The position numbers and the translations under genes are program-made. The notes below the pieces were generated by a model. That model saw nothing but the letters and a program-made list of their open reading frames with translations. It had not been told where the DNA came from and did no database searches. A DNA stretch of 63,015 nt, the filler included, from Reclinomonas americana ATCC 50394 (lineage: Eukaryota), in assembly GCA_048213135.1 (NCBI GenBank). It is 8 parts of 3 records of this genome, joined end to end, with 100 filler letters (N's around TTAATTAATTAA, not from the genome) between each part and the next. Parts side by side here need not be neighbours in the genome. Positions count along the whole stretch, not along the records: positions 1 to 15,390 come from PS015073.1; positions 15,491 to 24,205 come from PS015074.1; positions 24,306 to 32,090 come from PS015074.1; positions 32,191 to 38,827 come from PS015074.1; positions 38,928 to 53,339 come from PS015074.1; positions 53,440 to 57,401 come from PS015074.1; positions 57,502 to 61,329 come from PS015074.1; 1 more part is not named here. One strand, given 5' to 3'. Below, in pieces: positions 5,012 through 60,500 of the stretch (the first letter of the stretch is position 1; every line of letters begins with the position of its first letter).

Positions 5012-8000
5012 CTACAAACTGAGGTAGTACATTTCACGCGACTGGCGCTCCAAGACCGAGCCGATCCGGCTGCCAACCATCTCCATGTCACGAACAACGC
5101 AATGAAACCGCTGATAGTCGACAACGACGCACCGTTCAACCTTCTCGGCTTCAAAATGGTTGCCTCGCGAACGGAGTGCAGACGCCAAGATGTGCCGACT
5201 GGACACAGCGTTTGGATGGTCGACTCCACGAATCCGCTCATTGTCGACCACCACATGCCGCTGCATCTGCTCCGCCTCAGCATATTCGCCAAGTGAACAG
5301 AGTGTCATCGCCAACTTGCCGCGGCTAGCGATGGTGTCCGGATGGTTGACTCCAAATATCCGTCCACGGTCGGCCACCGCACGCCGCTGAATCTGCTCCG
5401 CCTCTGCATATTTGCCGACTGCGTGGAGCGTCGATGCCAGGTTGCCGCGACTGGTGACGGTCTCTGGATGGTTGCGGCCAAGAATCCGCTCACTGTTGGC
5501 GACGACACGCCGCGCGATCACCTCCGCCTCGACAAACTTGCCGAGCGAAGAGAGTGTCATCGCCAGGCTTTGGCTGCTGGCAATGGCGTCTGGATGATCG
5601 ACCCCTAGGATTCGCTCATAATCGGCCACCACACGCCTCTGAATCTTCTCCGCCTCGGCGTACTTGCCAAGCGAGTGGAGAGTTGACGCCAAGTGAGCAC
5701 GACTGGTGATGGTGTCTGGATGGTCCAAGCCAAGGATCCGCTCACGATCGAAAACCACACGCCGTCCTATCCTCTCGGCTTCGGCATACTTGCCAAGACC
5801 GTTAAGCGTCGACGCCAATATGTGACGACTGCCGATAGACTCTGGGTGGTCCACTCCGAGTATTCGCTCACGATCGGCCACCACACGTCGTTCAATTTCC
5901 TCGGCCTCGGCATACTTACCAAGTGCATTTAGCGTCGACGCCAACTTGTCGCGGCTGGTCATCGTGTCAGGATGATTGACACCAAGAAGCCACTCGTGAT
6001 CGGCCACCATACGTCGCTCAATCTCCTCCGCTTCGGCATATTTGCCGAGTAGCAGGTATGTTAACGCCAAGCTGTGGCGACTGTTGACTGCGTCTGGATG
6101 GTCGACACCCAGAAGACGCTCACGATCGACCACCACGCGCCACTGACTGTCCTCGGCCTCAGAATGCTTGCCAAGCACGTGTAGAACCGCAGTGAGCTTC
6201 TCCCTCGCCCTCAGTGCCAAGAGCATGTAAACTCGAGCCTCCACTGTAGGAATAGGCTTGATTCAGCGCAAGAGCTTCAGAAGCACAACATGCGTGCCAC
6301 GATTCACCACGACCGCTGGCAGCACGCTCGTTAACATCGACAATCGCACGCAGAATACTGTGCGCTTCTTCTGCGGCCGCAATGCTCCTCTGTAGAGCAC
6401 GGAATGAACGATCAGTCGCAGATTGACCAATAATCATCAAAACAGCAGGCGCAACTGGGATGGGATCTTTCCAAGATTGCTGAATGCCGAGAAACACGAG
6501 CAGCACAGATCGAGGAATCCCTGTAACAGAACACATCAGTAAAGTCGATAAGAGTACAGCAGAACACGCGATCCAACTGCAGACCATCGACGGCACTCAA
6601 GTGCTGATTGATCTTCTGAGTCAGTGCCGCGAGTGCAGGATTCTGTGTCATGTCGCCTGCTGGGCAGTGAAGGTGAACAGACTGAACAGACATAAACAAT
6701 GAGAGAATATACATCCCACCTTTCGTTGACGTCACCAAGTCGACAAATGGCCCAAGAATCTCCAGAACATCCAACGATTTCTGTGCCTCCTCTCCGGACA
6801 GCCGTTCTCGCACCTCTGTGGATTGAAAAATACGGTTCAGGCACGAACATTGGTGCTGCTGTCGGTCAAGTACATGTGTGCGAGACACGGACCATTCCAC
6901 AGCCCTCGCAAGCAGTCTTGGAGTGCGGCTTGAAGTCGTGCACGTTGCTGTTCATCCACACGAGGCATGATCGTGTCAAACACATTGCCAAGAGCCGCCA
7001 CCACATTGTCCACCGTCACGCATTCTGCTTGAACTGGCAATGAGAGAATGGACAATGCCACGACAACTGCTTGCAGCAAAACACTCACCGTCGCTTGGCT
7101 GCAACGCTACACGCAGCAAGCGATCTGTTCTGTCGACGAACTTCGCATCATTCCAACCAAGCATTGAACGAAACGGGGCTGGCGGCGGGTGCACATTGTG
7201 AGAAGCACAGACGGGGGTGCCAAGTCAGGAATATGAATGCTCACCATTGTATCGCGGTGAGTCGTAAAAACGATCGATAGAGTGCGATTGGCGGGGTGGC
7301 AAGTCGTGTTCCACAGTGTTGGGCAACTCCAGGCTACGACGCAGACCAACCCACTGTGCCACTCGAACAGAGAGGTCATCGGAATTCGAATACGTGTGTA
7401 CGAATCCTTTGTGGTGCTGAGTTGCTTTGCTTGCTGTATTCCAGAGAGGCACGCCTCGCCGGGTTGCGCTCTGATGTTCGGCGTTTGAGATAAACCCAAC
7501 GAAAAAGTATGCAGTGAACAACAAACCTCGCTATCGTCGGAGGCCACCCAGGAAGCCGGTACTGGAATGGTGGCAAACAAATACGCGTTCATTGGGAGCC
7601 GCGCGCTCTTGGCCAGCTCGCTGTGCATCAACCAAGCACTCTGGTCCTCGACATGAGCGCAGAGCAAGGGAATACGCGGCACGAAAACGACAAAGAGACG
7701 CACAATGGCAGAGCCAAGGCCGTGTCCGTGCACACTGACGCGATACGGCTTGAATGCTGCGTCTGGTCCGTGACTGGCTTGATATGACGGCGCCACGACA
7801 TCGAGGGCGTATCGCAGAGCCTCCTTGGCGGCCTCGAACTGCCAAGGGACAACACCGAAGAAGGCAAATCCGAGTGCCAGCTTGATGTGGGTCCAGAGAT
7901 CCGTCAACTTGGTGAAACGCGTTCCCGCGATGCACAAGTTGATCTCACGATTTTCGCGATCAACCTGCACACAAAGAAGCAATATCGTGATGGGGTGAGA

Positions 8001-9264
8001 GAGCAGGTCAAGTGGCAAAAGGGGAAGGGGGGAGGGACGAGGAAGGATGTAGAGCAGAGTGAAGAGCAATGAAGGACAGGGAGCAGAGCAATGCAGAGCA
8101 TAGAGTGCAGGAGCAACGCAGAGTCGAGTGCAGGAGCAATGCAGAGCAGAGAGTGCAGCAATGAAGAGCAGAGTCAGTGCAGCAATGCAGAGCAGAGTGT
8201 AGAGCAATGCAGAGCAGAGCGCAGGAGCAATGCAGAGCAGAGCGCAGGAGCAATGCAGAGAAGAGCGCAGGAGCAATGCAGAGAAGAGCGCAGGAGCAAT
8301 GCAGAGCAGAGCGCAGAGCAATGAAGAGCAGAGCGACGGAGCAACGCAGAGCAGAGCGAAGAGCAAGAAAGTGCAGAGCGGAGAGCAATGAAGAGCAGAG
8401 CGGAGAGCAATGAAGAGCAGAGCGGAGAGCAATGCAGAGCAGAGTGAAGCAGAGAAAGAGCAGAGCGAAGAGCAATGCAGGCATTACAACGCATCTCGAG
8501 CACGCAACGACAATGACGTAGGTCTCCTGTGCATCCACCACTTCCAAGCTCCGCAGACGACGCTTGAGGCTGTAGGGACAATCATAGGCCATCTTGCGCA
8601 ACATCTCTCGCGCAGCGGCAATGCGTCCCTCCGCAGTCGCCAGCGCGACCGGCTTTCCCGTGTACTCGTTCACGGAGTACGCCAACATCGCGAGCGCGGC
8701 ATGGTAGCACTTCATCTCAGTGAGTGCAGAGACCAGGCTCTGTTCCGCGATGCAGATGCGTTGATCAATGGACTCCCGGATGGCCGAGGCAAGCTCGCCT
8801 TTGTTGTTAACGGCGATCATTGGAGACGGGCGGATGAGCGACAACGGCGGAGGGTGTGGTGGTGGGTGTGGAGTGTGGAGGGGGAGTGGAAGTCGTGAAG
8901 GGGGGGAGGGTGGGACTCGGTGTTGGGCGATGGTGGATTCGGTGAGGTGGATGAGGGTGGGGGAGGCCTGGAGGGGGGGGGGAGGGGAGGAGAGAGGGGG
9001 GAGGAGAGAGGGGGAGAGGGGGAGGGAAGGAGGGAGAGTGTGAGAGAGAGAGGCATGATTTCGCTGAGTTGCCACCAACACATGATGGTAAGAGGGAGGA
9101 AGCGAGCAACGAAGAGACGTGCTATGCGTTTTCTTCGCCGGCGCGAGTGCAAGCACACGCGCGTATTACATAAACGTGTGTGTCACGTGAATAAAACTCA
9201 CCAAGAGCCCGCCGACGCCGAGCAGCACTCTGCCACTCCAGTGGCGTCGCAGCTGGTGTAGCAT
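5012..9264 (-). CDS. Lipase_3-like (pseudo-enzyme) + TPR-array protein, paralog A; about 11 exons
   Basis: Spliced model: MLHQLRRHWSGRVLLGVGGLL|ASPTLIHL..., lipase motifs LCIAGTR, DLWTH, VHGHGLG, YSNSDD, a helical linker, then one exon with ~8.5 42-aa KLC-type TPRs (LGKYAEAEEIxRRVVADRERILGVDHPDT). Exon structure is collinear with paralog B. Confidence 0.85.
8050..8480. repeat. Intronic minisatellite (GCAGAGCA / GAGCAATGCA units)
   Basis: Degenerate tandem units inside the intron 7965-8508 of paralog A. Confidence 0.9.
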
Positions 9265-9651
9265 GCGTGCAGTGAGGTCTTTATGTCGACACAATCCAAC
9301 GAAAGAAAGTACGTAATATAAGGCCGATAATGAGATTGTCCTGCGGACGACTTGGGAGGCGGGCTTGTTGCGCGTCGCAACTGTCATCACTGGCTGCCAT
9401 GGAGGCACACTTCCAGCTGCTCGTCTCGCGTCGTTATGAGAAGATCATGATCATCCTGACGTCGAGGTTTGATACCAACAAGTTACTCCTGACTCGTTCC
9501 CAGCAACCCACGTGTGTATCACTTCGCCTCCTCCCTCTACTTCCCTACTGGAAATTGCAAAAGTTATTGGATTCACTGATCTGCTCACAAAGAGTCTTTC
9601 TAGTGCACGTCGTGTGTTGTTTCGTCTTTGCTCACGGTCAGCAGCCACACG

Positions 9652-12600
9652 TCACAGAGCCTCCTCGGCCTCGACCTGCTTGCCAAGCGATTGGAGTGTC
9701 GTAATCAAGTTGCCGCGACTGGCGATTGTGCCCTGATGGTCGACTCCAAGAATCCGCTCACGATCGGCCACCAAGGGCCGCAATACATCCTCGGCTTCAC
9801 CGAACCGGCGAAGGAAGAAAAGTGTTGCTGCCCAGTCATGGCGACTGGCCATGGTATCTGGATGGTCGACTCCAAGAATCCGCTGGCGAACATCCACCAC
9901 GTGCCGCTGAATCTCCTCTGCCTCGCGGTACTCACGAAGCGATTGCAGAATGGCCGCCAAGGTGTGGAGACGGTTGATAGTAAGTGCATGTTCAACTCCA
10001 AGAATTCGCTTACTGGTGTCCACTACATGCCGCTGAATCTCCTTGGCCTCGACATTCTTGCCAAGCGAGTGAAGTGTCGATGCCAAGTTGTGGCAACTGG
10101 CGATGGTATCTGGATGGTCGATTCCGAGGACCCGCTCGCTATCGGCCACCACAACGCGCTCGATCTTCTCCGCTTCGATGTGCCTATTGAGCGACCAGAG
10201 AGCGGCCGCCAAGTCGCCGCGACTAGTGATAGTGACTGGATGGTCGACTCCAAGAACTCGCTCGCGGTCTGCCACCACACGTCGCTCGATTACCTCGACC
10301 TCGACATACTTGCCAAGTGACCAGAGTATCGACGCCAACCTGTGACGACTGGTGATGGTATCTGGATGGTCGGCTCCAAGAACTCGCACAAAGTCCTCCA
10401 CCACACGCTTTTGAATCTCCTCGGCATCGGCATACTTGCCAAGCGACTGGAGAGACGATGCCAAGTTGTTGCGACTGGTAATGGTGTCCGGATGGTCGAC
10501 TCCAAGAATCCGCTCTCGGTCGGTCACCACCTGTCGCTGAATCTCCTCGGCATCGGCATGCTTGCCAAGTGACTCGAGTGTCGACGCCAAGTTGTGGCGA
10601 CTGGTGATGGTGTCAGGATGGTCGACTCCAAGAACTTCCTCATTGTCGGTCACCACACGCCGCTCAGTCTCCTCGACCTCCGCATACTTGCCAAGTGACT
10701 GAAGTGTCAAAGCCAAGTTACCGCGACTGGCGATGGTGTGTGGATGGTTGACTCCAAGAACTCGCTTAAAGTCCTCCACCACACGCTCCTGAATCTTCTC
10801 GGCCTCAGCATACTTGCCACGTGAGCGAAGGGTAGACGCCAAGTTGTGCCGACTACCAATAGTGTCCGGATGGTCGACACCGAGAACCCGCTCACGGTCG
10901 GTCACCACATGTTGCTGAATCTCCTCGGCATCGGCATACTTGCCAAGCGACTGGAGAGACGATGCCAAGTTGCCGCGACTGGTGATGGTGTCCGGATGGT
11001 CGACACCGAGAACCCGCTCACGGTCGGTCACCACCTGTCGCTGAATCTCCTCGGCATCGGCATGCTTGCCAAGTGACTGGAGAGTCGATGCCAAGTTACC
11101 GCGACTGGTGATGGTGTCCGGATGGTCGACACCGAGAACCCGCTCACGGTCGGTCACCACCTTTCGCTGAATCTCCTCGGCATCGGCATACTTGCCAAGC
11201 GCGCGGAGCGTCGAAGCCAAGTTGCTGCGACTCGTGATGGTGTCCAGATTATCGAAACCGAGAACCCACTCACGGTCGGCCACCAAACGCCGCTCGATCG
11301 TCTCCGCCTCGGTAAACTTGCCAACCGAATGAAGCGCTTCCGCGACCTTTGCAATCGACTTGAAAGCCCAAGTGCTGCTCCTGTCTGCACATGTCTTCGG
11401 TACGAAAGAAACAAGATTGTGCTTGTTTCACAACTCACCATCTATGTGATCACGTGCTACAAGTACACGATCTGCCAAATCGGTAGCTGACGGCAGAATT
11501 CGGAGCGCTTCCTGAGCTGCTGCTGAGCCTCGCTGCAGAGTGTGGCATAGTTAGTGAGTACTGCATCACTGTGCCTGTGTGCTGTACCAACGCATAACAC
11601 GCAACTGGCCTGCGGCCACCGCAAAGTTGTTGAACTCCGAGACACACAAACAACACAGATCGAGGAATACCAAGGCCTGCGGTGCATTCAGTAACAAACA
11701 TTGTGCACGCAAACATCAGCGAAACCCATTATCGAACCGTCGATATCAATCAGGTGCTGATTGATCTCCCGAGTCACAGTTGCGATATCCGGTGAATCCC
11801 CAACTGCGATGGATCAGAAATCAGCATTCTCAAGCAAGAAGAATTGACGACTTTGGAGGCACGAAGATGAGTGTGGAGGGCACCTTCTGTCACCACGTCA
11901 ACAAACGATCCAAGGAACTCCAGCACGTCCAATGATCTCCGAGCATCGTCTCCAATCACACGGTCTCGCACCTCTGCAATCAAACACGTACATAACTCTA
12001 AAACATAGACGGCAGGGTAAGTGCATGTGGGCGCGAGTCGCGAACCATTCCACAGCCCGTGCAAGCAGTCATTGAGAGTGGCCTGCAGACGCGCACTCTG
12101 TTGCACGTCCACATGGCGCTCGTTAATTAGCCGCATAAATTTGGAGAGATCGTCTGCCACTTTCGTCACGGAGAGAGCTGGTTGCAACATGAGCGCGAAA
12201 TGCATGCAGAAAAGTTGAATTAGAAATATGCACAAACATATGTCATCACCGCATCACCCGCAAACAAGGCTTACCTCCGTCCAACTGCTGCTGCAAGGCA
12301 GCCCGCAACATCTGGACAGCTTGTTGGACTGCGTCCGTGGCATGCTCACCAATTGCTGGCCATGGTGCTAAATACGTGAATATGTGCCGAAAGTAGAAGC
12401 CAGGGCTCGGAATGCTCACCAGCTCGCGCCGTGTCATAGAAGTGCACGACAGGATGTCCGTTCTGAGGCGAATCGTGCTCAACGGTGTCGGGAAGCTGGA
12501 GGCGGCGGCGGATCCCAATCGAACCGACCCACTGTGCCATTCTGACCACCCAGTCATCAGCATTCGAGTACCCATGAACTGCACCTCCGCGGTGGTACAC

Positions 12601-12777
12601 CGTCGTGCCGGCGGCCAATGCAAGCGGGGCGATTCCCACCTGATTCTGTGACGCAGCAGTGTTCCATAAAATGTCACTGAGATTCACACACACACACACA
12701 CACANNNNNNNNNNNNNNNNNNNNCGACGACGACGTACGTACGTAAACTAAAGTAACTACTACGTACGACGTACGTA

Positions 12778-25300: not shown

Positions 25301-28300
25301 ATTTACTTTTCCACACACAGCATCGCACATCATCACCATTGTGCTGCCGAAGCGGACAGTGGATTTCGTGATTGAAGACAATGCCCTCCGCGCGCAGTGG
25401 CTCATGGCGCTGCAGGTGTTGTCCGGTCGCTCGGTGCACACGCCCTCCGCCGTTGCGTCGCAAATCACACGCCGTGTGTGAGCGCAATTGCATTGACTCT
25501 TATCCTCGTCGCTCCGACAGGCTGCGGATGTCTCTGTGCCTCCACAACGGCGGCTGTCGTTGACACGACACAGTCGGTCGACGCGTCGATCACTGGCGGA
25601 CTTGCCACCGCGTGCCACCACCCTCGTTTGCCACTTTCTGTCGCTCAGTGGTGCGTCTCCAAAATGGTGATTTGTTCGTGTCCTTGAGAGTTCACCTCCT
25701 CGTCGCTTGCAGACTTTAGTTACTTGTGGCAAGTGTCGACTGGTTTCTGCGAAATACTGGAAAAGTGCGTATCGCAAGATAGTCTCTCTCTTTCTCTCTC
25801 TCTCTCTCCTCCTTTTATTCTCCCCGGCATCCGGTCTCCACTTACTTCCTCCCTGCTTCTCTCACCCAATTTATTATCTTGTCTGCAGTTCACTTGCAAC
25901 TCGCAGTGTCTCCCTGTTTCGTCCTCTCTGTCTCTCTTGTTGCCTATCTCTCCCGATTTCATTTTTNNNNNNNNNNNNNNNNNNNNTCCCTGCTCCTCTC
26001 ACCTGATTATTATTTTCGTCTTACTTGCAACTCGCAGTGTCTCCTCCCTGTCTGTCTTGGTGCCTGTCTCTCCAGTTTTCATGCTTGTCTCCTTTCAGTT
26101 CACGTGATGCTTGTTGTCTCTTCCTCTGACTCTCTCTAACCCCTTCGTCCCATATTCCCCACAAGCTGCTCGTCCACAGTGCTTGTCTTGTCATGGCTCC
26201 CTCTCTTCCCAACGCGTACGCTCACTCAACTCCCCAGCCGTCCTCCTTTCTTTGTTACCCTTATCTGCCGCTCTCTTACTTGCAGATGATCTGAAACTTG
26301 CACTCTCGCTCTCCCTAGATGTTTTCTCGCCATTTCTCTTTCATCTCTCTTCACCCTTCGCATTCCACTACTCTCTTGGCTCTCTCTCCTCTCTTTCCTT
26401 ACCATCCCCCTTCCCCAAACAAGCAACCTCTCCGAGCTGTCCCTGCCAGTGCGCACCAACTTGGGACTGCTGGTGGCCCCCTTCACCCACTCCGTGCGGC
26501 GAATCGTTCTCAAAGGTGGCCCCACTCACCCTGCGTGACGCTCCTTGTTGCTGCTCACCTTTCCCATTCCCATTCAGCTGGAATTTCCGAGAGTGCCTTT
26601 ATGTCCACTGACTTGCCGGCGCACGCGGCCCTGCCGGCCTGCACCCACCTGCACTCGCTGGTGCTGGGGCTTGCGGGACCACACGTCGCTGGTGATGATT
26701 ATTCGATTGGTTTCGATACGTGGGTCCAGCTTCCCGCGCTACGTGTGTTGTCTCTGCGAGGTAAGCCATTGTGGTGGGTCAGAGACCGATGCGATAGTGC
26801 GGAGATGGGGGAGTACATGAAGAGTGAGAGAGATTGAGGCAGAGTGAAGCTTATAGAGCAGATAAGGCATTGCACACAAGTCAGTGACGAACTTGTGAGA
26901 AGCACAACGCACATTAGGAAACTGGAGGAAAAAATGCAGATTACCTGCTGACCCCTCCCTTGTCCCGCTTGCTACCGTTTCTCGCCTTCCTTAGCACCCC
27001 GATCTACCCTTCCCCTTTCACATTCGCCTTACTTTCCACCTCATCACCCTTTCCCCTCATACCCCTTCCTCCTTTCATGTTCTCCCTTCTTCCCTTCCCC
27101 ACTCCACTTCCCCTCATCTCCCTTCCCCCTTTCACCTTCTCCCTTCTTCCCTTCCCCTTTACCTTCCCCCTCATACCCCTTCCCCCTTTCACCTTCTCCC
27201 TTATTCCCTTCCCCTTCCCCCTTTCCCCCATCCCCCTCCTGCCTCCCCCAGGCGGCTGCATCGGGGAGCGCGGATTCACCGACGCGATTGGCAACTGCAA
27301 CGCACTGACTCGCCTCAGTCTGAAAGGTTTTGTCTCGCGCATCACAACGCATCCCCATCCTTGCCCATCAACCCCTCCCTTTCCTTTCGCAGAATCCACC
27401 TTCACGCGCCAAGGATCACCCGAGTGCGCAATCCAGCTGCTGCACACGCTGGCACGACACAAAATTCCCACCGACTTGCTGGACTTGTCGTCGACCCCGT
27501 GGATTGCACAACGACTCAACAAGGACGACCTCACTGTGTTTGCCGAACTGGTCGAACTCCTCGGACAGGCGCCCGTACGCCGCCTCGATCTCAGCCGATC
27601 CTTGAACGGCTTGTCCAACGCAGCGCAGGCGTCGCTGTCACGACTCATCGGCCAACTGGCCGATCAGGCGCCGTGGTCTCTGGAGAGCTTGTGGCTGGCC
27701 GACAACAACATCGCGTTCATGTCGTCCAGCATCGGCGCACTGGTGTCAAAGTGCGCGTCACTCACGGAGCTGAATTTGCGCGGCTGTCCGCTGGACGATG
27801 CCGGCGTGGCCCGTGTAGCCAGGAGTCTCAGCGGCACTCGACTGCGTCACCTCGACCTGACCGCCACCGGTGTCGAGGTGGAGGGCGTGCAAGCCCTGGT
27901 CGCCAGCCTGAACGGCTCGACGTCGCTGGAGCGACTGCGCATCAGCAGCGGCTATGACACTGCGAATTTGCCGCTGATGAGGCCCAGCATATCGCAGAGC
28001 GGCTCATTTTCACGCCCGTCTCACGATCGGCAACGGCGATCCACGTGGCACGTCGTCGGCAGTCTGTCGGATGAGGCGTTGCGTGTGCTGCTCGAGCTCG
28101 TGGAAAGCCTGCCACATCTACAAACCCTGGCCATCGACGGTATGATTGGGAGGCGTTTCTATGTTGCTGAGCCTCGCTTTCACTTCAAATGTGCAGGGAA
28201 TTCACTGGATGCTGCCACCACCACGCGTCTCGCACATTTCTTGAGTCAGCCGCACTGTCCACTGACTGCGCTGTCGCTGCACGGTGAGTCTCTCGTTTCT

Positions 28301-32020: not shown

Positions 32021-32079
<59 letters not shown>

Positions 32080-32418
32080 GAGGAGAACGANNNNNNNNNN
32101 NNNNNNNNNNNNNNNNNNNNNNNNNNNNNNNNNNTTAATTAATTAANNNNNNNNNNNNNNNNNNNNNNNNNNNNNNNNNNNNNNNNNNNNGCGAAAGGCA
32201 ATCAAGCAATCAGTCACACACAATCACAAATCAATGCACACAATCAACAATGCACGCAGAAATGCACACAATCACGCACGCGAAAAACAAACAAACACGC
32301 CAGGGAAACAACACACGCCGAGCATCGCCCGACAATCATCCACGCGTGAGACACACACCAACGAAGGAAAAAAAGGGCGCGAAAAACATTGTGTGTGTCA
32401 CATAGAGAGAGACGCAAC

Positions 32419-33636: not shown

Positions 33637-33670
33637 TTTGCTGCGCCCTCAGCCTCTCATGACGACCGAC

Positions 33671-38827: not shown

Positions 38828-38954
38828 NNNNNNNNNNNNNNNNNNNNNNNNNNNNNNNNNNNNNNNNNNNNTTAATTAATTAANNNNNNNNNNNNNNNNN
38901 NNNNNNNNNNNNNNNNNNNNNNNNNNNATGCATTGATTGTTTTTCTCGTTTGGG

Positions 38955-48893
<9,939 letters not shown>

Positions 48894-49247: not shown

Positions 49248-52200
49248 TTACATGCGCACTTGCGTTGGGGCCGCAGGCGGCGGATGTGGATTGTTGCTGC
49301 CGGCGGGCGGTGCAGTGGGGTTCACCGACTGCATGTGGCCGGGTGCCGACGTCGGAGGCGGCATGTTGAATTCCGGATGCAACTGCGCGTGATCCTTGCG
49401 GTAGCCGTCCATGACCGCCTGCAGATCCTTGGAGGCATACACCTGCGAAGCACAAATTCAGCACGACTTCATGACAAACACAACTTCCTATCTGTCTCTC
49501 TCACACACACGCACCCTCTGTCTCTCATTCTTGTCTCTGTTTACATTCTCCCCACTCTCTCCCTCCCGCACCATCATGCCGTGCTTCATGTTGTCATTGT
49601 CGTACACATACAAATGCAGCGTGGTGTCGATGGCCGTCTCGAAGGTCTGCGACAGCACGTGATTTTGAGCATCGTACACATACTGCAGCAGCTTGCGATG
49701 GAGCACACCAACCTTCATGAATGTCTTGGCGACAAAGTAGTTGACTATAAAGGCGAGCTGAAACACCACCACTTATTGTCAGCGCCCAACAGCTGCGAAG
49801 CGCACCGCTTGCGACACACACTCACCATCGCCGGGAAGAACGGATTGGAAATCTGCTCAGCACCGCCTTGCACCAGCGCATCGGAACGGATGAACACCAT
49901 GACCAGGAAGGTGCAGAACGCGGAGATGCCCAGCTGCTCGGGCAAGCCGTGTCAGAAGCGATAAGAAAGAGACGAGGGACTGCTTTCCACGCACCTTGCC
50001 GAGGAACAGGAGCCAGTCGCCGACCAGATCGACGGCAAACACCAGGCCGAGGTTGTTGGTGTACAAGTGGAACGCGCGAACAGCAGAGCTGCAAAAGTTC
50101 TCGTCGGTGATCATCATCTGCGAGCGATGCGAATCAGTCAAACTCTCGCAAGCAACCAAACAACACGCGCGCTGACACAACCCTTCACCTCAATGTACGC
50201 GTGATGTGTCAGATACTTGAGGCACTTCTCCAGGCAGTACAAGCAGCACAGGCAGCAGCAGCAGCACAGCTGCCAGAGTGGCGGTGTAGTGGTGAGCAGA
50301 ATATCATTCGTGCAACTGTCCGTGATTAGCCCCCACTCACCTTGTAGCAGCACGTGGCTCCGCTGCACACGGCACCGACGCCGTTTGAGAAGAGCGCGCC
50401 GGGCACGCCGGGCAAGAGGCAGCTGGAGACCGGGATGATACCACACTGTGGTGTGCGGCAATGGCGATGAGAGAGTGAATGGCATTTATCAGGAACACGC
50501 TCGGTTACGCAACAAAGCGAGCAGATCCACGCTCAGCAGCCTGTGTATGGGGTCAGTCGGGAATGGACAAAGTTGAACGGAGAAGAGGATCACGCACCTG
50601 CAGCTTGGCCAGCAGGTACGTCAGCATGTAACGCAGCATCTGGACCACGGCCACAATGAGACTGCCAAAAGCCAGCGATCCTGCGTGGAGGGAATGGGGT
50701 GTGACGAGAGGAAGGGAGAGAGGGAGAAGAGAACAACAGCGTTGACTTCACACCGAAATGGTAAAACTGAGCACGCGCCCAGGACTTCATGACGGGCCAC
50801 GTGATCTCCTTGATCTGCGGTGTGCAGAATGCGGTGAGTGAGAGAAAGAAGGGAGGGGAAAGGAGGGAGAGGCAGGGAGAAAGAGGGAGATGGCGACCGG
50901 CTGTTTGTAATGCCTGTCCGCACGCACCTTCGGATCCTCGTTGCAGTACCAGAAGCGCGTGGCACCGGCCACCGTCGCGGTGGTCAGCGCAATAAAGAAG
51001 AGCGACACCCAGATGCCGAGGAAAATGTGATACAGAATGGCATACTGGGGTGGACGGGGTCAGTCGCATCATCCAGCATGACAGAAGAAAAAGAATGCAG
51101 AGTACGCACCCGCACGTTGGTGGCATAGGAGATGGTGCCATTCTCAATAGTGCCGGCGCCGAACAGGAAGACGCACACTGCGGTGTCGCGACGTGGTGAG
51201 AAAGGACTCCTGCGTGAGGTGGGAATCGAGAGGAGCACTCAACCTGCGATCCAGTACGAGAAGAAGCCGACTTGCGCGATGAACACCCAGAACGGAAACA
51301 CTGGAATGGTGGGTGTGTGTAGAATGGCTCGCGAGGCCTCCAGGATCACGAGACCGGCGACGCGGATGTGGTGGCGCAGGGCAATCTGATAAAAGAGGGG
51401 GAGGAGGGGAAGGAGGGGAAGGAGAGGGAAGTGAGATTAAGAAGGGAGCGAAGGAGGAAGAAGGGAAGTGAAAAAGAGAGAGAGGGAGAGAGAGAGGGAG
51501 GGAGAGCTAGAGAAGCACACTTCAAGGAAACATGCCGCAGAAACGCACCATCATGATGATCAAAATGAGAGCACCGAACAAGCATGCGCCAGCAAACACC
51601 CACAGCGCAATCACTTGACCACGCGTCTCCTCCTCAATGCCCAGATCGTCGTTCTCGTTCTGAATTTGCCGGGCTACACATGCACACACAATGAACATGG
51701 GTACTCGTGGAGCAGGCGACCGCCATTACGCACCTCGCACAGCGGCATACACGCCGAGAATCACCAAGCCCGCCACGACGACAATCATCGCGACCCACGA
51801 CAGCCAGCCGGCGAAGCGGCCAGTGAACCTGCATGGGGGAAAGAAGTGGGTGGCGTGATTAAAGCAGCGACGCAATAAGATGACTATTACGCACCAAACA
51901 AAGATAAAGGACATCACCACACAGATGAGCAGTGCGAGAAGCTGTGCCGGCCACGAGCGACCGACGTTGTTGATCGAGGTGCTGACCAGGTCGAGGCCCT
52001 TGCCGACGGGTAGATAGGCCGGCGCGACCGGGAAGCAGCGGTTGACGACTGGTTTGTGAATAGGAAAGTGAGGCGTGAGGCAGAAGAGGAAGAAGAAGGG
52101 CGAGGAGCAGAGCGACTCACATGAGCGGTATTTGCCGTACACTGCGCGAGTGGACAGTGATGAGAGAAGTGGTGGTGGCAAATGAGAGAGAAGGGTGTGT

Positions 52201-53209
52201 GCGCACCTTTCAAGCCGCTACTGTTTTGCACACAGACTTGGTAGGAGATGCCGTTCTTGACAGCTATGCTGGGGCTGCCAGGGGAGAAGTCGCTGTGCGG
52301 AGGGAAGAAGGGAAGGAAAAGATGAGGGACAAGAGAGAGAGAGAGAGACAAAGGAGAAGGCGAAGACGAAGACATGGGTGATGAAGGAGGAGGAATTCGC
52401 GAAAGAAGAAGAGGAGGAGGAGCTTGGAAAGGAAGAGAAGCAAAGGGATAAGGGACAAGAGCAGAGAGTCATCTCCAACTGGCAATTACAGCATGAGGGG
52501 ATGAAGAGACGATGGTATGCGTGGTGAAGGAATAAGATGAAGGGAGATCTAGAGGGAGGAAGGGAAAGTGGGAATGAAGCAAGAGGAAGAGAAACAACGA
52601 GGGACAGGAGAAAGAGAAGAAAGGCACCTCCAACTCACAAGCAAGCTGAGGAAGTGAGCGGAGGACGAAGAGACGGTGGAGCGGTCGGTGAATGAGGTGG
52701 AGGACGAAACGAAGGAGGAGCGTAGAAACAACGAGGGACAGGAGAAAGAGCGATAAAGCCAGGAACAAACGAAGGAGAAGATCATGCATGCACATGAAAG
52801 AGGCGTCGAGAACACCAGACAAATCAAAAGGGGCACATCTTGTCTCGCTTGTCTCTCGCTCGCTTCTCCACTTCTGGCGACCAACACAGAATGCCATCCG
52901 CAGACGCAACGACGGACACTGCTGTCCATTGGGGCACGCCGACGCACAGTAACCACCTCCACTCAAGTTCGAATAGTCGCTGTAGATGAACTTGGGCCTG
53001 CCATCATAACAACAACGAAAAGGTGAGAGTCGACGCACGCGCATAGCACACGTGATCAGCACACGCAACAGGCCCTCGTTGATGCCGACGCCGCAAAACT
53101 CATTGTTCTGGCCCACGGGGTTGAAAATGCCGCGGATGGAGCCCTTGCGGAAGGCCACGGCTGCAACCGCAACGCCGCCGAGCAGGAAGAGGATGAAAAT
53201 GACGGCGAA
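49248..53209 (-). CDS. Choline transporter-like (SLC44/CTL) membrane protein, 5' end missing
   Basis: NNEFCG, CASACP, PVVNRCFP, RHIRVAGLVILEASRAI, YHFGSLAFGSLIVAVVQ, CCLYCLEKCLKYLTHHAYIE, NFCSSAVRAF, WLLFLGK, ETAIDT. Confidence 0.92.
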
Positions 53210-53439
53210 CTGCACGGCGAAGGCGAAGGGAGAGAAAAAGGAGAAGGGAGGAGGGAGGGAGGGAGGGAGGAAAGGGAGAGAGGGAAGGGAGAGAGGGAAG
53301 GGAGAGTGAGTGAGTGAGTGAGTGAGTGAGTGAGTGAGTNNNNNNNNNNNNNNNNNNNNNNNNNNNNNNNNNNNNNNNNNNNNTTAATTAATTAANNNNN
53401 NNNNNNNNNNNNNNNNNNNNNNNNNNNNNNNNNNNNNNN

Positions 53440-54106: not shown

Positions 54107-54181
54107 GTCGCTGCAGCAACACAACACTATGTGATCAAAGTGTAAATTTTCATTCATTGTTGCTTGTTTTCAAGCGTCGCT

Positions 54182-56227
54182 TTAGACAGTGTCGGCAGAG
54201 GGAAGTGGGGCCACGGAGAGTGCACAGTGCATCTCTGGGCGCAGTGGAGGCAGGTTGGCATCGGCAATGCCCACCGCCTGAGAGACAATGACGGATTGGT
54301 TGAGGGGCCGTGTTGGTTCCGACGACTTGCCCATCATGGTCGGCATCAGCAGCATGGGGTCCATGGAGAGTCCGGAGGAGACGGTTGACGAGGGCATCAT
54401 GGGGAGCGACGGTGGAATGACTGCAACGCGCGTACCACCGTCAGCAAAGTCCGTTTCTTCTGGTTATTTCGAAGGTTTTACAAGCACACACCAGAGGCTG
54501 CATCGATGGAGCTGCTGGCGGCATTAGGGTCACCGCCCAGCAACAACTCGGCTGTGGGTGTCGTTGTTGTTGTGGCCGGCGACGAGGAGCTCATGTCCTC
54601 GGCGGCCGGCATGTCGCTGTCACTCGGTGGCAGTGGCGGCGGTGGCGGTGGCGGAGGTGGCGGCGGAGGTGCCAACATGCCGGCCACCATCTCGGCGGGG
54701 ATGTTGAGCTGTCCGGCCAGCAGCGACTGCAGCTCGGGCGGGAAGGTGCCGGCGACCGTGGAGAGGAGCAGCGAGTTGAGATCGACATTGGCGAGAGCGG
54801 CAAACTGCGCAGGATCCAGCGACTGCAGCGCCTGCTGCATGGCCAACAGATTGGCCGTCTCCGATTCCAGCGATGGCATGCCTTGCATCAGCTGCTGTTG
54901 TGCGCCAGCGTCGCTCTGCCGGCGTCGTGAGCTGCCAGCCGAGGGAGAGAACAACTGCCAAAAGGGAAACTGAGTGTGCGAGGGAAAGAGGAATAGGAAG
55001 AGAAAAAGTAGGATGGGGAGACGCAACATCCGCGTGCGCATTCTTCTCGTGAGAGCGCCGATGCGAGACGTCGGTAAACACCTTGGTGCAGCCCTCCACC
55101 AAGCACGGATAGGTGACACCGCGATGCGCCGTGTCCACATGCCGTCGCAAATTGAACGAGCGCGTAAACACCTTGGTGCAGCCGGGGAACTCGCACGGGT
55201 AGTACGTGCAGCGTCCGCGCGACTTGCGTCCACTGTCGCCATCACCCGAGCCCGAGTCCTCGTTCAGCCCGCCACTGCCGGGGAACATGCCGCCGAGACC
55301 ACCACTGCCGGGCGTGCCCGGTGACTTGAGCGCAGCTGCCGCCGCCGCTGCCGCCGCCGCTGCCGCTGCCGCCATTGGATTGCCACCAGGTGCTCCCAGC
55401 GGCTGCAAAAACGCACTGCTGTTGCTCAACATCTCCTGGAATGTGGCCGGTGACGTCGAGGCCGCCAGTGCCGCCAGCAATTGCTCCATTTCCGGTCCGG
55501 CAAACATGCTCGGCGGCAAATTCCCCAGCGCCGCCAGCAGGTTCGGGTCGTTCAGAAGCGCCGCCGCGTCTATTTGCGCAGGAAGCAGCTGTGCTACTGC
55601 AGCAGCCGCCGCCGCAGCAGCAGCAGCAGCATTCGGCTCCTCCTGTTGCGCCTGTTGTTGTGTCGGCGACATGCTATGCCGCTGCCGCACAGCAGGCGGC
55701 GAATTGGACCGTGCACTGCCATCGGCCTCCAGTGGCCTCTTGCGCTGCGGCTGCGACGACAACCAATGAGCAAACTCAAAGTGGAAACGCACAATTTGGC
55801 GGGAAATGCTCTCACAACGCGCACACACACAGAGAAGCGCCAATGACACCAAACACACGAGACACGCGCACTCGACAGAAAACACGCGTGGCGCACACCA
55901 AACAGAGACAGTGGAGGAGGTGGAGGTTCAATTGGGGCGCGAGGGGGGTTTGCCGCAGCAAATGCGCGTGTTGCTCGCCCAGCGCGAGCGAGCGAGCGAG
56001 CGAGCCACTCGCCATCATCATCATCACTGTCGACAAAGCAAGCAGCTCACCTCGAACGGATTGACGGCGGCGGTGATCGACAACGTGACTGTGCCCTCCT
56101 CACTGATGCTCACAGTGGGTGGCGGTGGCGGCGGCAGAGGCGGGGGCGGAGGGAGTGACATGGACATCGCGCCCTCGCTCATGTTGGCCTCGTCGTCCAC
56201 CGACTCCAGACCGTGTTCGTCGCTCAT
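54182..56227 (-). CDS. C2H2 zinc-finger transcription factor (two fingers, Ala/Pro/Gln-rich)
   Basis: YPCEFPGCTKVFTRSFNLRRHVDTAH and YPCLVEGCTKVFTDVSHRRSHEKNAH, in GT-AG-bounded exons. Confidence 0.85.
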
Positions 56228-56441: not shown

Positions 56442-56449
56442 TGACGTCA
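56442..56449. promoter_or_regulatory. Perfect CRE palindrome TGACGTCA in a ~250-bp divergent promoter (C2H2 gene / NYN gene)
   Basis: Motif lies 28 bp upstream of the NYN ATG and just upstream of a putative 5'-UTR intron donor of the C2H2 gene (56407). Confidence 0.4.
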
Positions 56450-56476
56450 TCTCACTTGAACACACACACACACACA

Positions 56477-57365
56477 ATGGCTTCCGCGGCACCTCCCTCG
56501 TCTGCGCGTCACAAGCAGCGTCCGCCGAACATGCGGCTCACTGCTGCTGGTACGCATCTCCTCTCAGACATAAAAGACGCACTCACAGAAGTCATATAAC
56601 AGCACCGCAACCTCCGCCGCCGCCCAAGGTGCACATTGAGGAGGCGAGTGCAGAGAGCGCCCCCAGTGACTTGTGTCAAGGACCTGTGGCCATTTTCTGG
56701 GATACAGGTTGCGAATGGCGCTCGTGCCACTCATGTGTGTTGCAACTCTCTCATAAATGTGTGTAGAGAATGCGGCGGTGCCCAAGGGCATGCCGGGGTA
56801 TGTGCTGGTGGAGCGCTTGCGGGAGACTGTGCATGCATTTGGTCCGATTGTGCTCTTCAAGGCGTACTTGGAGATTGGTGTGTCGGAGAAACAGCGCTCG
56901 TTGCGACATGAGTTGCAGTCGTCGGGAGGTTTGCCGTACGTGTATTGCCTCCGTCTGCGCCTATCCACGCGCGCATGCTGAGGAGCAAGGGTGTTTCATG
57001 CGCAGTATCGTTGACGGATACACCACATACGGGCAACAAGAACACTGCGGATCAGATGATGGTGTGCTGTCATGAAACCTTGTTTTCGAGCTGGTATCAT
57101 CCACAAGCTCATCACGTTGCGTGTAGATTGTCGACATGATGGCGTTTGCGTTGGATAACCCGCCGCCGCTGACGATTGTGGCCATCACTGGCGACATTGA
57201 CTTTGTGTATTGTCTGTCGACGCTGCGCAATCGCAAGTACAAGTTGCGTTGTGTGTGTATGTGTCGCTCTCTCGCGCGTGATAAGCGACTGACTGACGGA
57301 CTGACTCGACGCAGCATTGTGCTCATCTCGCCGCCGACGGGCACCAGTCAAGTGCTCCGTGCAGC
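56477..57365 (+). CDS. NYN-domain (Limkain-b1/MARF1-like PIN-fold) ribonuclease, 3' end missing
   Basis: VAIFWDT|ENAAVP, KAYL, LRHELQSSG, KNTADQMM, AITGDIDFVYCLSTLRNRKY|NIVLI. Confidence 0.88.
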
Positions 57366-57521
57366 GTTGCGTCTCTATCTCTCTCTCTCTCTCTCTCTCT
57401 CNNNNNNNNNNNNNNNNNNNNNNNNNNNNNNNNNNNNNNNNNNNNTTAATTAATTAANNNNNNNNNNNNNNNNNNNNNNNNNNNNNNNNNNNNNNNNNNN
57501 NGGACGCTGCCGCGGCCGCGC

Positions 57522-60500
57522 GACGTGCCGATCGCCGCCGTCGCAAACGTCGCAAGATCAAGCGACGCATGCGCAAGCTGATGGAGGCTCGACAGGCGGC
57601 AATAGACGCCGGACTTGAGGTGGAGGAGGCAGAGGTGGAGGCCACTCTGCAGGAGTACGAGCGGCGGTTGCACAGACGGTTGAAGCCGCGGCGACGAGAG
57701 CAGAATGCAGATGCAGCTGATGATGATGATGATGAGGTGCCGGAGGATGCCGAAGTGCGACGCATGATCATGCAGGCCAGTGAACAGCAGTCGTCGCCGC
57801 CGGGACCGCCAGTGCCTCCACCAGTGCCGGTCAGCAAGAGCGAGGTGCGGGCCAAGAAGCAGGCGAGCTGGAGAATGCGTTTGCCGGCGGGCACGACACC
57901 ACCGCCACCCGATGCGTCGCCGGTGCTCGGATCGCCGACACCACCGCCGCCGAATCGCAGTGGCAAGGTATGTGCATGCGCCGGGCCGAGCAAGTGAATG
58001 CATCGATTGAGCGCTGGTGTTGTTTTTTTTTTAGGTGCATCGATCGCCGTCGTCGGGGCAAGTGACGCCATCGCCGGCGACAGTGGCGGCTTCGGTGCTT
58101 ATGAATCCGCCGCTGGAGTCGACCAAGTTCCGGCATTCGTCGACCATGGCGGCGGCGCAGACACCGGCCAGTAACACGGCGGTGAGCAGTCGGGATCAGA
58201 GTATTTCGCCGGCACCGCGTCCGCTGGTCGTCGTGCCGTTGCCGTCGTCGGACACGGAGGGTGAGGCGACGGCGTCGCCAATGTCGGTGTCGACACCGGG
58301 CAGTGGCGCTGGTGTGGGAATCGCTGCTGCTGCTGGCGTGGGAACGACGTCGCTGCGCGAGAAGCTCGCCCAGCGACACGCGCTGCAGCAGAGGCTGAAT
58401 GAGGAGCAGGAGGCGAAGCAGCGGCAGGAGCAGGAGGAGGCTGCCGATCGCGCTCGTCGGGAGGCCGCGGAAGCGTACCATGCTCGTGTCAATCGACCGA
58501 CGCCGCGAGTGCACGGCCCTGTGCATTCGACACCGAATCCGACGCAACAGCCGAGGGTGAGCGCGCGTGTGGGGGAGAACTCATTCATGGTGCGCATTCT
58601 TGCTCACTTTCTTAATCTGCACAGGCCGTTGTTCTGCGCGCCGGCAGCGCCCCGGTCGCCTCGCCAGCCGCCGACACACCCGGCATCGACGGCGGTGACC
58701 ATCAGCAGCGACTGCTGCGGGCACCACAACATCCTCCGCTGCAACATCCACCCCTCGAACATGAGCGCACCTATCGACACGCATCAATGCAGCCTGCGCC
58801 TCCACCACCACCACCACCACCGCCACAGCAGCATTCACGCCCGCAGCAGCAACAGCAAGGCCCACCATTACCGTCGTCGGGTCCGGGGACGCAACTGGTG
58901 CCGCGCTCCTATCGGTCCGGTTCACCAGCGACTACGGCCATGTTTCCGCCTGCGTCGGCGTCACCCAGTGGTGGCGGCATGTCGCGACGACCGACATCGT
59001 CACAATTCCGCAGTGGGAGTGTGGTGCGCTTTGCCGACACGGCCGAGTCCACGACCCCGCAGCCGCTGTCTTTTGGTCGCCGCCACCTGACGTTGGAGGG
59101 GCCTCCGCCACTACCGGTGCGAGTGAATCGACGCCACTTGCGCCCTGCCGACTATGCACTGCTCAAGCAGTATGTGGCCGAGGGCTTTTGCTGCGAGACC
59201 ACCGTGTTTTTCTACGACGGTGGTCGAGTCGTGGAAGAATTCCCCGCCGAGTTGCGTGTGGGCGGTGACTCGACATTTGCGTTCTGGGAGAGCCCTCTCC
59301 TCCTGGCCTCGGAGGTGGCGCCCTGGTGGTGCTGCGGTCCATCGAAGCCGCGCAAGGCCCGTCAGTTGTCGCACACCAACCCCATACACCGCGACCTGCG
59401 AGTCGAAGTGGACGAGGCGACCAAGTACCTCACGGTGTGGGACATTCGCGTCTCCGATTTTCGCATCACCTTTGCCACCGCCACTCCGTACGTGGTGGAG
59501 GCCGCCTTTCGGTGCTTGATTGAGCGCAGCAAGTTGCGAAAACCACCGCCGCTCGTTCTCTTCTCCCTGCCACGCATGCACGCACTAACTTGTCGCTGAT
59601 GCTCTCCTCAGACTGCTTGACGAATTCGCCGCTCTCGGCGCACCGGCCACGTTTGAATTTGAGAGTGGATCCGTGCACGATGCAGCCATGAAGGCGTACG
59701 ACGAGGAAACTGGTGCACCGCCACCACAACCACCACAGCAACCACCATCGCAGTCGTCGACAGCGCTGTTGCCGCGACTGCCGTCAAGAACGTCTGTCCG
59801 TGATGCGTCGGCGGCGGGTGTGGAACCGCTTTCGTTGCCGCGCTTCGGCTCACCGCTGTCGTCGGCCGGCACACCATTGTCGCTGGCCGCCGTCGGCAAT
59901 GTGACTTCGCCGACAGCCGGTGGAGACCAGGAGAACAGATTCGGGAGTGACAGAAATGCGGATGGCGCGGTCGGCGGTGACAATGGTGGAGCAGGTGGCA
60001 CGCCGACTGGTGGCGAAGCTTGTTGCGTGCATTTCATTTCTCATCATTCATTCTCTTTCATTTGTATCCCACTCAACTCCCCTACGCAGTCGACCGACGG
60101 CGGCAAGCTGCATTCTCCATTGGCATCGACTCGCCGCGGAGCTACGGACCCGACGCGCCAGCCTTCAAGCGACCACCGCGAACCACCGCCGAACCAACAC
60201 CGCCCACGGTTCGTGACCCGGCGCTGCCGGTGGCACCTAGTCACTCGAGTCTCAAGCCACGCGCCACACCCGCCTCGCGACCTCTGCCACCACCCGAAGC
60301 GCTGCTGTCGCCCGCCGAGATGGACATGGAGATTGCTGCGGTGGCTGCTGCCGCGGCCGAGGTGCAGGCCATGCAGCAGGAGCAATTGCGTCGCCGACAA
60401 CGGCAAGCTGGGCTCATGGTGGCACCGCCGGACGACGACGAGCCACCACCACCACTCGATCTGTCCATTCCGCCACTCGAGCACTTTGAGTCGCTGGCGG

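Follow-up and report, generated by a model that had tools for sequence, protein, structure and literature searches.

A 63,015-base stretch of the gapped draft assembly of Reclinomonas americana ATCC 50394 (GenBank assembly GCA_048213135.1), referred to here as the window, appears to use a second class of intron donor sites with the sequence GTTGCGT. Judged from the DNA, this class is confirmed as real and far beyond chance, and it would account for roughly a quarter to a third of the introns in the window. Its GCGT core lies one base deeper in the intron than that of ordinary donors. With a probability of about one half, we favour the reading that a shared U1, and later U6, recognises these sites one base off register. 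All junctions are predicted from sequence (reading frames, homologue alignment and gene-finder models), and all frequencies come from this window alone, which includes 4,177 N. Its gene regions have ~55% G+C and its genes are intron-dense.

We call class A the donors with G at +5, and class B those of the form GTTG(C/A)GT; the class B consensus is H/GTTGCGT, where H is any base except G and the slash marks the splice junction. An earlier inspection of the same DNA by eye, the sequence-only reading, had proposed such a class, shifted by one base and spread over at least ten genes; this holds here, and the class proves discrete. It had also listed 33 donors beginning GTTGCG. Each of the 33 proves to be GTTGCG on its proposed strand; 30 of them read GTTGCGT, the others being GTTGCGA (56708, 59533) or GTTGCGC (6455). 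Only two of the 33 (56708 and 30365) follow a G at the last exon position (-1G), again as it had noted.

That the word exceeds its chance occurrence is borne out by counts in the window. The two strands together contain 67 GTTGCG sites, where dinucleotide-preserving shuffles give 42.4 ± 6.7, and none of 100 shuffles reaches 67. The excess is wholly due to GTTGCGT, which has 40 copies against 8.46 ± 2.79 (the largest of 100 shuffles has 16) and a z of 10.1 against a third-order Markov expectation. The 7-mers ranked above it by z are dinucleotide-repeat words, the assembly linker and GTACGTA/TACGTAC. The ordinary site together with its exonic G, GGTGCGT, has 19 copies against 8.84 ± 2.86 in shuffles.

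Pfam matches establish the coding strand of four blocks, and within these 25 copies of GTTGCGT are sense and one is antisense (p = 8e-7). Of the 27 GTTGCG(A/C/G) sites, 8 are sense and 10 antisense; because this amounts to no coding-strand bias, the three listed sites that do not end in T (56708, 59533 and 6455) are without statistical support. Word counts by strand thus make T a requirement at +7 of class B donors. The extra base is also always T: GTAGCGT, GTCGCGT and GTGGCGT have 1, 7 and 10 copies with no strand bias, against the 40 of GTTGCGT. GTTGAGT is rare as a word (2 sense, 3 antisense), though GTGAGT is a common class A donor. The base before the 40 GTTGCGT copies, which can be read without any gene model, is C in 17, T in 11, A in 11 and G in 1; with G at 21.5% of the positions that precede a GT, one in 40 has p = 7.6e-4.

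Two coding-strand copies of GTTGCGT are not donors in our models. That at 45744–45750 (minus strand) lies within the 45796–45733 intron, 17 nt from its 3' end, and that at 28078–28084 (plus strand) lies within a long open LRR exon.

Donor sites in a reference gene and in gene models

A phospholipase-B-like gene served as reference. Removing its 15 introns leaves a single open frame of ~530 codons ending in a stop. Five of its exon-bearing open reading frames match PF04916, with E-values between 8.7e-21 and 1.5e-07. Two of its exons were used in an exhaustive HMMER search of a library of 1.84 billion representative proteins, which gave 52 homologues; the best has E = 4.2e-10 and 37% identity over the matched stretch, so that this library lacks a close relative. 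The spliced model was aligned with 16 homologues of 500–700 residues, and every junction was inspected against 12. The gene, its class B donors and one related donor are as follows, with the preceding exonic base in lower case; the finders are described below.

15753–21014, plus strand: phospholipase-B-like gene, 16 exons and 15 introns (by-eye model, Pfam PF04916, 16 homologues)
15830–15836, plus strand: c/GTTGCGT donor, phase 2, intron to 15907; AWGKYS/DQIE..TTGW is gapless in 10 of 12 homologues (those covering it); donor-model finder
17950–17956, plus strand: c/GTTGCGT donor, phase 2, intron to 18011; frame kept, in a variable loop where the alignment is consistent with it and says no more; donor-blind finder
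18093–18099, plus strand: t/GTTGCGT donor, phase 2, intron to 18245; DDFYI/NQ..PSQLVTMETT, the junction length equalling that of homologues P0002 and P0035 and exceeding most homologues by one residue; donor-blind finder
18378–18384, plus strand: c/GTTGCGT donor, phase 2, intron to 18440; VANRLANS/GGEWSS is gapless against 12 of 12 homologues; donor-blind finder
20183–20189, plus strand: c/GTTGCGT donor, phase 1, intron to 20783; the junction codon is L in a column hydrophobic in 8 of 12 homologues, in a length-variable loop where the alignment goes no further than being consistent; donor-blind finder
20857–20863, plus strand: c/GTTGCGT donor, phase 2, intron to 20929; FD..MP/ISHVGM adjoins a conserved H.G motif, in a length-variable loop with which the alignment is just consistent; donor-blind finder
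20040–20046, plus strand: g/GTATCGT donor with CGT at +5 to +7; DLNPK/NGTW is gapless against the 8 of 12 homologues covering the loop, the other 4 being gapped

The sequence-only reading had counted 6 GTTGCGT donors among the 15 of this gene and -1G at 8 of the other 9, and both counts stand. The six are at 15830, 17950, 18093, 18378, 20183 and 20857. The other nine are G/GTTCGCG, G/GTACGT, G/GTGCGT (twice), G/GTGAGC, G/GTCCGT, A/GTGCGT, G/GTGAGT and G/GTATCGT. At the predicted class B junctions, reading frames and homologue spacing fit cleavage before the GT, and other in-frame donors would alter the aligned junction spacings.

These protein data bear on a further possibility, namely that class B sites are cleaved in the class A register, so that the exon keeps the G, the intron starts TTGCGT and the 3' cut falls one base past the AG. 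Such cleavage would make -1G universal. Worked by hand, it leaves the protein unchanged at four of the gene's five class B junctions in phase 2, and since what it alters there is a third codon base with synonymous effect, the protein evidence at phase-2 sites fits it equally. It would however deprive the intron of its +1G and turn the 3' end into AGN with an unconserved last base (the bases after CAG vary), against CAG ends in 29 of 33 class B introns. At 20183 it would also put R into a column that is hydrophobic in 8 of 12 homologues. We give it next to no weight.

Four introns of the gene are long (919, 448, 837 and 601 nt), and the other eleven measure 55–153 nt. Minisatellites swell the four long ones (16155–16655, 17473–17861, 18947–19719 and 20418–20615), with units of 73–86 nt, of 16 nt repeated 24 times, or CT-rich units of 22–64 nt.

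For the rest of the window we used a custom Viterbi gene finder that combines codon-usage log-odds, composition states for introns and intergenic DNA, and an acceptor matrix, and that keeps phase across introns. For these other genes, the support for a restored reading frame comes from the frames of this finder and from Pfam matches of exons. The finder was run in two forms.

Donor-blind finder. Any GT may serve as donor, and no other donor rule applies. In its first run, with the phospholipase-B-like gene as sole training data, it chose GTTGCGT at 55027, 42313, 30365, 30251 and 8508. The retrained finder called 135 introns, of which 20 start with GTTGCGT, against 0.78 expected from the frequency of the word (40 of 6,951 GT sites); its retrained codon, intron and acceptor models derive from predictions made with a donor model. 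GTTGCGT was the commonest donor 7-mer in this run (20), the next having 5.

Donor-model finder. A two-matrix expectation-maximisation fit to donors gave CAT/GTTGCGTC with weight 0.58 and AAG/GTGCGTGC with weight 0.42. With this mixture the finder called 151 introns; of the 15 that had been curated in the phospholipase-B-like gene, it found 14.

As donors, the 33 sites of the sequence-only reading fared unevenly. Six are backed by an open frame together with homologue alignment. The donor-model finder uses 28 of the 33 and the donor-blind finder 18, and five are used by neither: 6455, 48882, 50513, 56708 and 57366.

It might be asked whether class B is an artefact, made of mis-called junctions, of the tail of one degenerate matrix or of a chance word. 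The gene models are home-made and neither finder uses those five listed sites, points which speak for it. Against it, none of 100 shuffles reaches 40 copies and the strand bias is 25:1; a single matrix would give 1.6 such donors where 30 were seen, the donor-blind finder found 20 for 0.78 expected, and homologue alignment backs the junctions of the phospholipase-B-like gene. We consider the artefact largely refuted already, and accordingly give it very little credence.

Two donor classes and their pairing with U1

The 151 predicted introns comprise 70 of class A, 33 of class B, 9 with +6G/+7T and no +5G, and 39 others. A filter independent of the donor (flanking coding score, acceptor score and length) keeps 72 calls, 32 of class A and 24 of class B; a stricter donor-independent filter leaves 43, of which 13 are GTTGCG. 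The class B share is thus 15% by the donor-blind finder (20/135, a lower bound), 22% of all calls (33/151), 33% of filtered calls (24/72) and 40% in the reference gene (6/15). The sequence-only reading had set its claim against one degenerate donor matrix free of any -1G anti-correlation. A single position matrix fitted to the 151 donors predicts 1.6 GTTGCGT, and 30 were seen; the -1G contrast given below has p = 8.7e-13. The data thus go against that alternative on both counts.

Class B donors are far more uniform than class A donors. At their 3' ends the two classes look alike. A CTNAY motif lies in the last 40 nt of 26 of 33 class B introns (mostly as CTCAC) and 43 of 70 class A introns, at a median distance from the 3' end of 19 nt and 18 nt, respectively. 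Median intron length is 72 nt in class B and 71 nt in class A. The last three bases are CAG for 29 of the 33 introns in class B and for 62 of the 70 in class A; class B also has two AAG and one GAG, and all its members begin with GT. Since branch sites, 3' ends and lengths match those of class A, class B introns, as predicted here, are ordinary U2-type GT-AG introns.

U12-type introns have a 5' motif /RTATCCTT and a branch site TCCTTAAC located 10–15 nt from the 3' end. Like class B, they form a second class of introns whose 5' motif is long, rigid and confined to the intron, and they lack a consensus in the exon. The 5' motif of class B is GTTGCGT, however, and its branch motif is CTCAC at ~19 nt as in class A, not TCCTTAAC; we therefore rejected a U12-type assignment.

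Introners are known in many aquatic protists, and class B could in principle descend from one such mobile element with the 5' end GTTGCGT, inserted after bases other than G, of which only the functional donor survived decay. Such an origin would account for the fixed 7-mer, for the bias at -1 and for the presence of the class in unrelated genes. When the 151 introns were all compared with one another by blastn, however, 6 matches resulted, none of them between two class B introns, and information content in class B is ~0 from +8 on; with no mutual similarity and no information beyond the motif, class B introns are not a recent repeat family. Their lengths and branch sites are also those of class A, and the third base at phase-0 sites (a pyrimidine in 9 of 10, A in the other, never G) looks like ongoing selection rather than history. 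We judge the introner origin unlikely.

The last base of the exon separates the classes. Over all 151 calls, -1G accompanies 55 of 70 donors in class A and 2 of 33 in class B (Fisher p = 8.7e-13); in the filtered set the counts are 26 of 32 against 2 of 24 (p = 6.7e-8). Phases 0/1/2 are 34/23/13 in class A and 10/7/16 in class B (p = 0.007), class B being richer in phase 2. Phase alone is insufficient for the depletion of -1G in class B, because G frequencies by codon position lead to an expectation of 9.3 such sites where 2 are observed (p = 0.0014). At the 10 phase-0 class B sites, where the last exonic base is a synonymous third base, it is C in 5, T in 4, A in 1 and G in none; G makes up 36.5% of third positions. 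From these predicted junctions, -1G looks counter-selected in class B, more than just unneeded. An apparent preference of class B for C/G at -3 is most simply put down to its phase-2 sites, in which -3 is a third codon position.

We propose the following scheme. Class A would be the canonical-register site of the lineage, G/GTGCGT or G/GTGAGT, dependent on the exonic -1G and pairing with U1 from -1G through +6. In class B the UGCGU core would stand one nucleotide further from the cleavage site. One U1, and later U6, would read both classes, the class B helix being offset by one base, through either a shifted register or a bulged-out +3U, and the later steps of the spliceosome would still cleave before the GU. 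The offset register would lose pairs, so that only a full core would be tolerated; having to keep every remaining pair would make class B near-invariant where class A is degenerate. Site class would go with the last base of the exon, and coding constraints there would decide which site can evolve; the enrichment of class B in phase 2 may follow if those constraints disfavour G at -1 in that phase. We infer all snRNA pairing of both classes. The sequence-only reading had likewise suggested a shifted or bulged register, or variant U1/U6 snRNAs, and either would be plausible.

Several results weigh against this scheme, or against the data under it. Duplex energies were computed with the textbook U1 5' end and with a hypothetical U1 perfectly matched to GUGCGU, neither of which may be the organism's own. 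The textbook U1 gives -7.4 kcal/mol for the class A consensus and +0.5 for class B, that is, no stable duplex; the hypothetical U1 gives -15.3 and just -6.2, respectively. In these duplexes class B pairs through UGCGU only. A bulged register predicts that -1G should help (-5.6 with the textbook and -11.9 with the hypothetical U1), yet -1G is avoided. The -2 and -1 positions of class B do not mirror -3 and -2 of class A, as a pure shift predicts. In the filtered set the phase difference between classes is no longer significant (p = 0.12). All intron sets were produced by a home-made finder whose donor model includes -3 to -1; false calls are certain among them, and 39 of the 151 calls fit neither class, many of them looking spurious. 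One claim of the sequence-only reading is not borne out by the same energies: it had explained the depletion of -1G by the +1G standing in for it, but pairing energy predicts -1G to be favoured or neutral, and it is depleted.

The energies bear equally on a reading in which two U1 species, perhaps with matching changes in U6, split the introns between them: a standard-like U1 for GTGCGT/GTGAGT and a variant complementary to GUUGCGU in its own canonical register. A near-invariant 7-mer with zero information after +7 is like the site of a dedicated guide, the textbook U1 forms no stable duplex with class B, and the avoidance of -1G is opposite to what the bulged register predicts for the class A U1. 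Precedents for changed U1 exist in Entamoeba, Mastigamoeba and Physarum, according to the accessible part of bioRxiv 10.1101/2022.06.08.495308. On the other side, no snRNA gene was found at gathering score or at E ≤ 1, a search confined to the 63-kb window. Further, a U1 complementary to GUUGCGU needs a change opposite +1G or +2U, and none is described in the accessible part of the same preprint. We hold the two-U1 reading to be a serious alternative, though a less likely one. In its fuller form, with two parallel 5' splice-site systems in the major spliceosome, the second U1 (with or without its own U6) serving H/GTTGCGT and actively rejecting -1G, it strikes us as doubtful.

Donor sites and gene content of the window

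The window is interrupted by seven identical 100-base blocks, at 15391–15490, 24206–24305, 32091–32190, 38828–38927, 53340–53439, 57402–57501 and 61330–61429. Each consists of 44 N, TTAATTAATTAA and 44 N, an artificial join with stops in all six frames. Because the blocks are artificial joins, the pieces on either side may not be true neighbours, and TTAATTA is the most over-represented 7-mer in the window. Pfam scans of open frames place the following genes.

~5–13.5 kb, minus strand: TPR-repeat genes
near 27–28.4 kb, plus strand: LRR gene
33.7–38.7 kb, minus strand: kinase/WD40 gene region
~39.6–49 kb, minus strand: THOC2 (Tho2 domain)
~49.3–53.2 kb, minus strand: choline-transporter-like gene
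~53.5–54 kb, minus strand: INTS7, confirmed by the protein atlas
~57 kb, plus strand: NYN-domain gene

Donors and claimed donors outside the phospholipase-B-like gene are given below with the finder or evidence concerned.

6449–6455, minus strand: a/GTTGCGC, claimed donor; neither finder
8502–8508, minus strand: c/GTTGCGT donor, TPR-repeat gene, phase 0; donor-blind finders
11599–11605, minus strand: a/GTTGCGT donor, TPR-repeat gene, phase 2; donor-model finder only
13405–13411, minus strand: t/GTTGCGT donor, TPR-repeat gene, phase 0; donor-blind finder
23718–23724, plus strand: c/GTTGCGT donor, phase 0; donor-blind finder
25452–25458, plus strand: c/GTTGCGT, likely donor beyond the earlier 33, intron to 25520; donor-model finder
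29448–29454, plus strand: a/GTTCCGT donor; donor-model finder only
29599–29605, plus strand: a/GTTGCGT donor, phase 1; donor-model finder only
30245–30251, minus strand: t/GTTGCGT donor, phase 2; donor-blind finders
30359–30365, minus strand: g/GTTGCGT donor, phase 2, the sole GTTGCGT in the window after G; donor-blind finders
30918–30924, minus strand: a/GTTGCGT donor, phase 2, at the HRLLH site; donor-model finder only
31630–31636, minus strand: g/GTTTCGT donor; passed the donor-independent filter
32412–32418, minus strand: a/GTTGCGT donor, phase 1, acceptor uncertain, the intron spanning N runs; donor-model finder only
36760–36766, minus strand: t/GTTGCGT donor, kinase domain, phase 2; donor-blind finder, Pfam Pkinase on both flanking exons
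36995–37001, minus strand: c/GTTGCGT donor, kinase domain, phase 1, two in-frame acceptors possible; donor-blind finder
38180–38186, minus strand: a/GTTGCGT donor, phase 2; donor-blind finder
39476–39482, minus strand: c/GTTGCGT donor, phase 2; donor-blind finder
41353–41359, minus strand: t/GTTGCGT donor, THOC2, phase 0; donor-blind finder, Pfam Tho2
41806–41812, minus strand: a/GTTGCGT donor, THOC2, phase 2; donor-model finder, Pfam Tho2
42307–42313, minus strand: t/GTTGCGT donor, THOC2, phase 0; donor-blind finders
45790–45796, minus strand: c/GTTGCGT donor, THOC2, phase 0; donor-blind finder
47310–47316, minus strand: a/GTTGCGT, likely donor beyond the earlier 33, the intron spanning an N run; donor-blind finder
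48876–48882, minus strand: a/GTTGCGT, possible 47-nt 5'UTR intron of THOC2; by eye, with CTCAC as branch motif and CAG 47 nt downstream; neither finder
50507–50513, minus strand: t/GTTGCGT, possible donor of a 27-nt micro-exon (50540–50514), choline-transporter-like gene; by eye
51237–51243, minus strand: g/GTTGAGT donor, the offset form of GTGAGT, rare; passed the donor-independent filter
52904–52910, minus strand: c/GTTGCGT donor, phase 2, N-terminal part of the choline-transporter-like gene; donor-model finder only
53063–53069, minus strand: t/GTTGCGT donor, phase 2; donor-model finder only
55021–55027, minus strand: t/GTTGCGT donor, phase 0; donor-blind finders
56708–56714, plus strand: g/GTTGCGA, claimed donor; neither finder
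57243–57249, plus strand: a/GTTGCGT donor, NYN-domain gene, phase 2; donor-model finder
57366–57372, plus strand: c/GTTGCGT, claimed donor running into an assembly gap; motif present, neither finder
59533–59539, plus strand: a/GTTGCGA, claimed donor; donor-model finder
60022–60028, plus strand: t/GTTGCGT, likely donor beyond the earlier 33; donor-blind finder

At 36766 the acceptor chosen by the finder is wrong. Read by eye, splicing from this GT to an acceptor ..AATGTAG gives ..PPEAIRDDACD-L-AADIW, and so restores the AADIW motif as the sequence-only reading had said; the resulting spacing from APE to DIW is, we take it, the usual one for kinases. In THOC2, exon-by-exon Pfam matches lend local support to the junctions at 41812 and 41359, which they show to be continuous to within a few profile positions. 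By extrapolation from these matches, the exons flanking 41359 reach Tho2 position ~226 and resume at ~234, and those flanking 41812 give ~108 and then ~105.

The possible micro-exon at 50514–50540 (minus strand) is in frame, with a CTGAC..CACAG acceptor before it and the GTTGCGT donor after it. Both finders skip 50513 in favour of an intron from 50597 to 50446. Since skipping keeps the frame too, the micro-exon, as read from the DNA, could be a cassette exon.

Three TPR_10/TPR_12 (nephrocystin-3-like) repeat genes lie side by side at 5012–13500 (minus strand). In two of them a GTTGCGT donor (8508 and 13411) comes after the same paralogous exon end, ...ACCTACGTCAT.., which would make the class B donor older than that TPR gene duplication.

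Donors of the form G/GTTTGT, with +3T, +4T and +5G in normal register and mostly -1G, occur at 25096, 25263 and 28426 (plus strand) and at 7526 and 11699 (minus strand). As a word GTTTGT has 13 sense and 4 antisense copies; the genome accepts +3T in canonical-register sites too.

Rfam searches over the window gave no match at gathering scores. At E ≤ 1 they gave no snRNA and just four sub-threshold matches to microRNA families, three of them on one hairpin. This hairpin, at 61755–61858, is a near-perfect inverted repeat with arms of ~45 nt and a short loop, and its matches are to three unrelated families, on both strands and below threshold (41–46 bits against gathering scores of 70–90). It is more likely a hairpin repeat or an element like a miniature inverted-repeat transposable element (MITE) than a known microRNA. 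A scan of metagenome contigs with a THOC2 exon found no relative, and with the best match to the phospholipase-B-like gene at 37% identity, public protein data seem to cover the lineage poorly. Two further protein searches, one with an exon of the phospholipase-B-like gene and one with a THOC2 exon, gave no match.

Known systems and significance

Recognition of the donor by U1 is among the most conserved RNA–RNA contacts in eukaryotes, and -1G is otherwise near-universal. To our knowledge, off-register U1 pairing is known only as a rare exception. Roca and Krainer (in 2009) and Roca et al. (in 2012) reportedly described human 5' splice sites at which U1 pairs in shifted or one-nucleotide-bulged registers.

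The shifted and +2/+3-bulged human registers have been validated by suppressor U1, with cleavage staying at the GU (Tan et al. 2016, PMC4856993); the accessible part of that paper puts human sites with validated noncanonical registers at an estimated 1.5%. The likeness to class B is close on these pages of the paper: one extra nucleotide stands between the GU and the part that pairs with U1, cleavage is at the GU, and U at +2/+3 is bulged or mismatched. The human sites, however, have many sequences, whereas class B is one invariant 7-mer at ~22–40% of window donors. Class B also avoids -1G, which is not described for human sites in the accessible part of PMC4856993. Class B is best filed with noncanonical-register 5' splice sites, here major and sequence-fixed instead of a rare exception.

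Other lineages have changed U1 itself. In the accessible part of bioRxiv 10.1101/2022.06.08.495308, Entamoeba U1 is described as changed to match GUUUGU, a +3U consensus in normal register, and Mastigamoeba U1 as changed to match +4C (GUGCGC). These Archamoebae thus share with the window an atypical donor consensus, there tied to a changed pairing region, and demonstrate that U1 can change; as described there, however, each has one consensus in normal register, whereas in the window two classes coexist at an offset of one base. The nearest precedent for two U1 species comes from Physarum polycephalum, for which the same part of the preprint mentions modified U1 genes besides standard ones, although the modification there matches GUAUGU in normal register.

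Class A is less unusual. G/GTGCGT is similar to the GYGCGY/+4C donors given for Mamiellales, Thecamonas and Mastigamoeba in the accessible text of bioRxiv 10.1101/2022.06.08.495308, where those of Mamiellales and Thecamonas go with a standard U1, and it resembles the GTGCGTG donor of Ostreococcus in the corresponding part of PMC2483917. In neither of these partial texts is an offset second class reported for Mamiellales, Thecamonas or Ostreococcus. A literature search of partial coverage found no publication naming GTTGCG(T) as a donor class; the matches to the word were apparently primers or unrelated uses.

Single-matrix gene finders would mis-annotate such a genome, as the 1.6 GTTGCGT donors predicted in the window against 30 called indicate. 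If two parallel systems did exist, introns would be partitioned by the last base of the exon, and class B would be a third kind beside U2-type and U12-type introns in all but name. A genome with at least a quarter of its introns on one fixed off-register word, and with -1G counter-selected there, would be a natural experiment. It would bear on the uncoupling of U1 pairing, the hand-over to U6 and the choice of the cleaved bond, and on the duplication and specialisation of core snRNAs.

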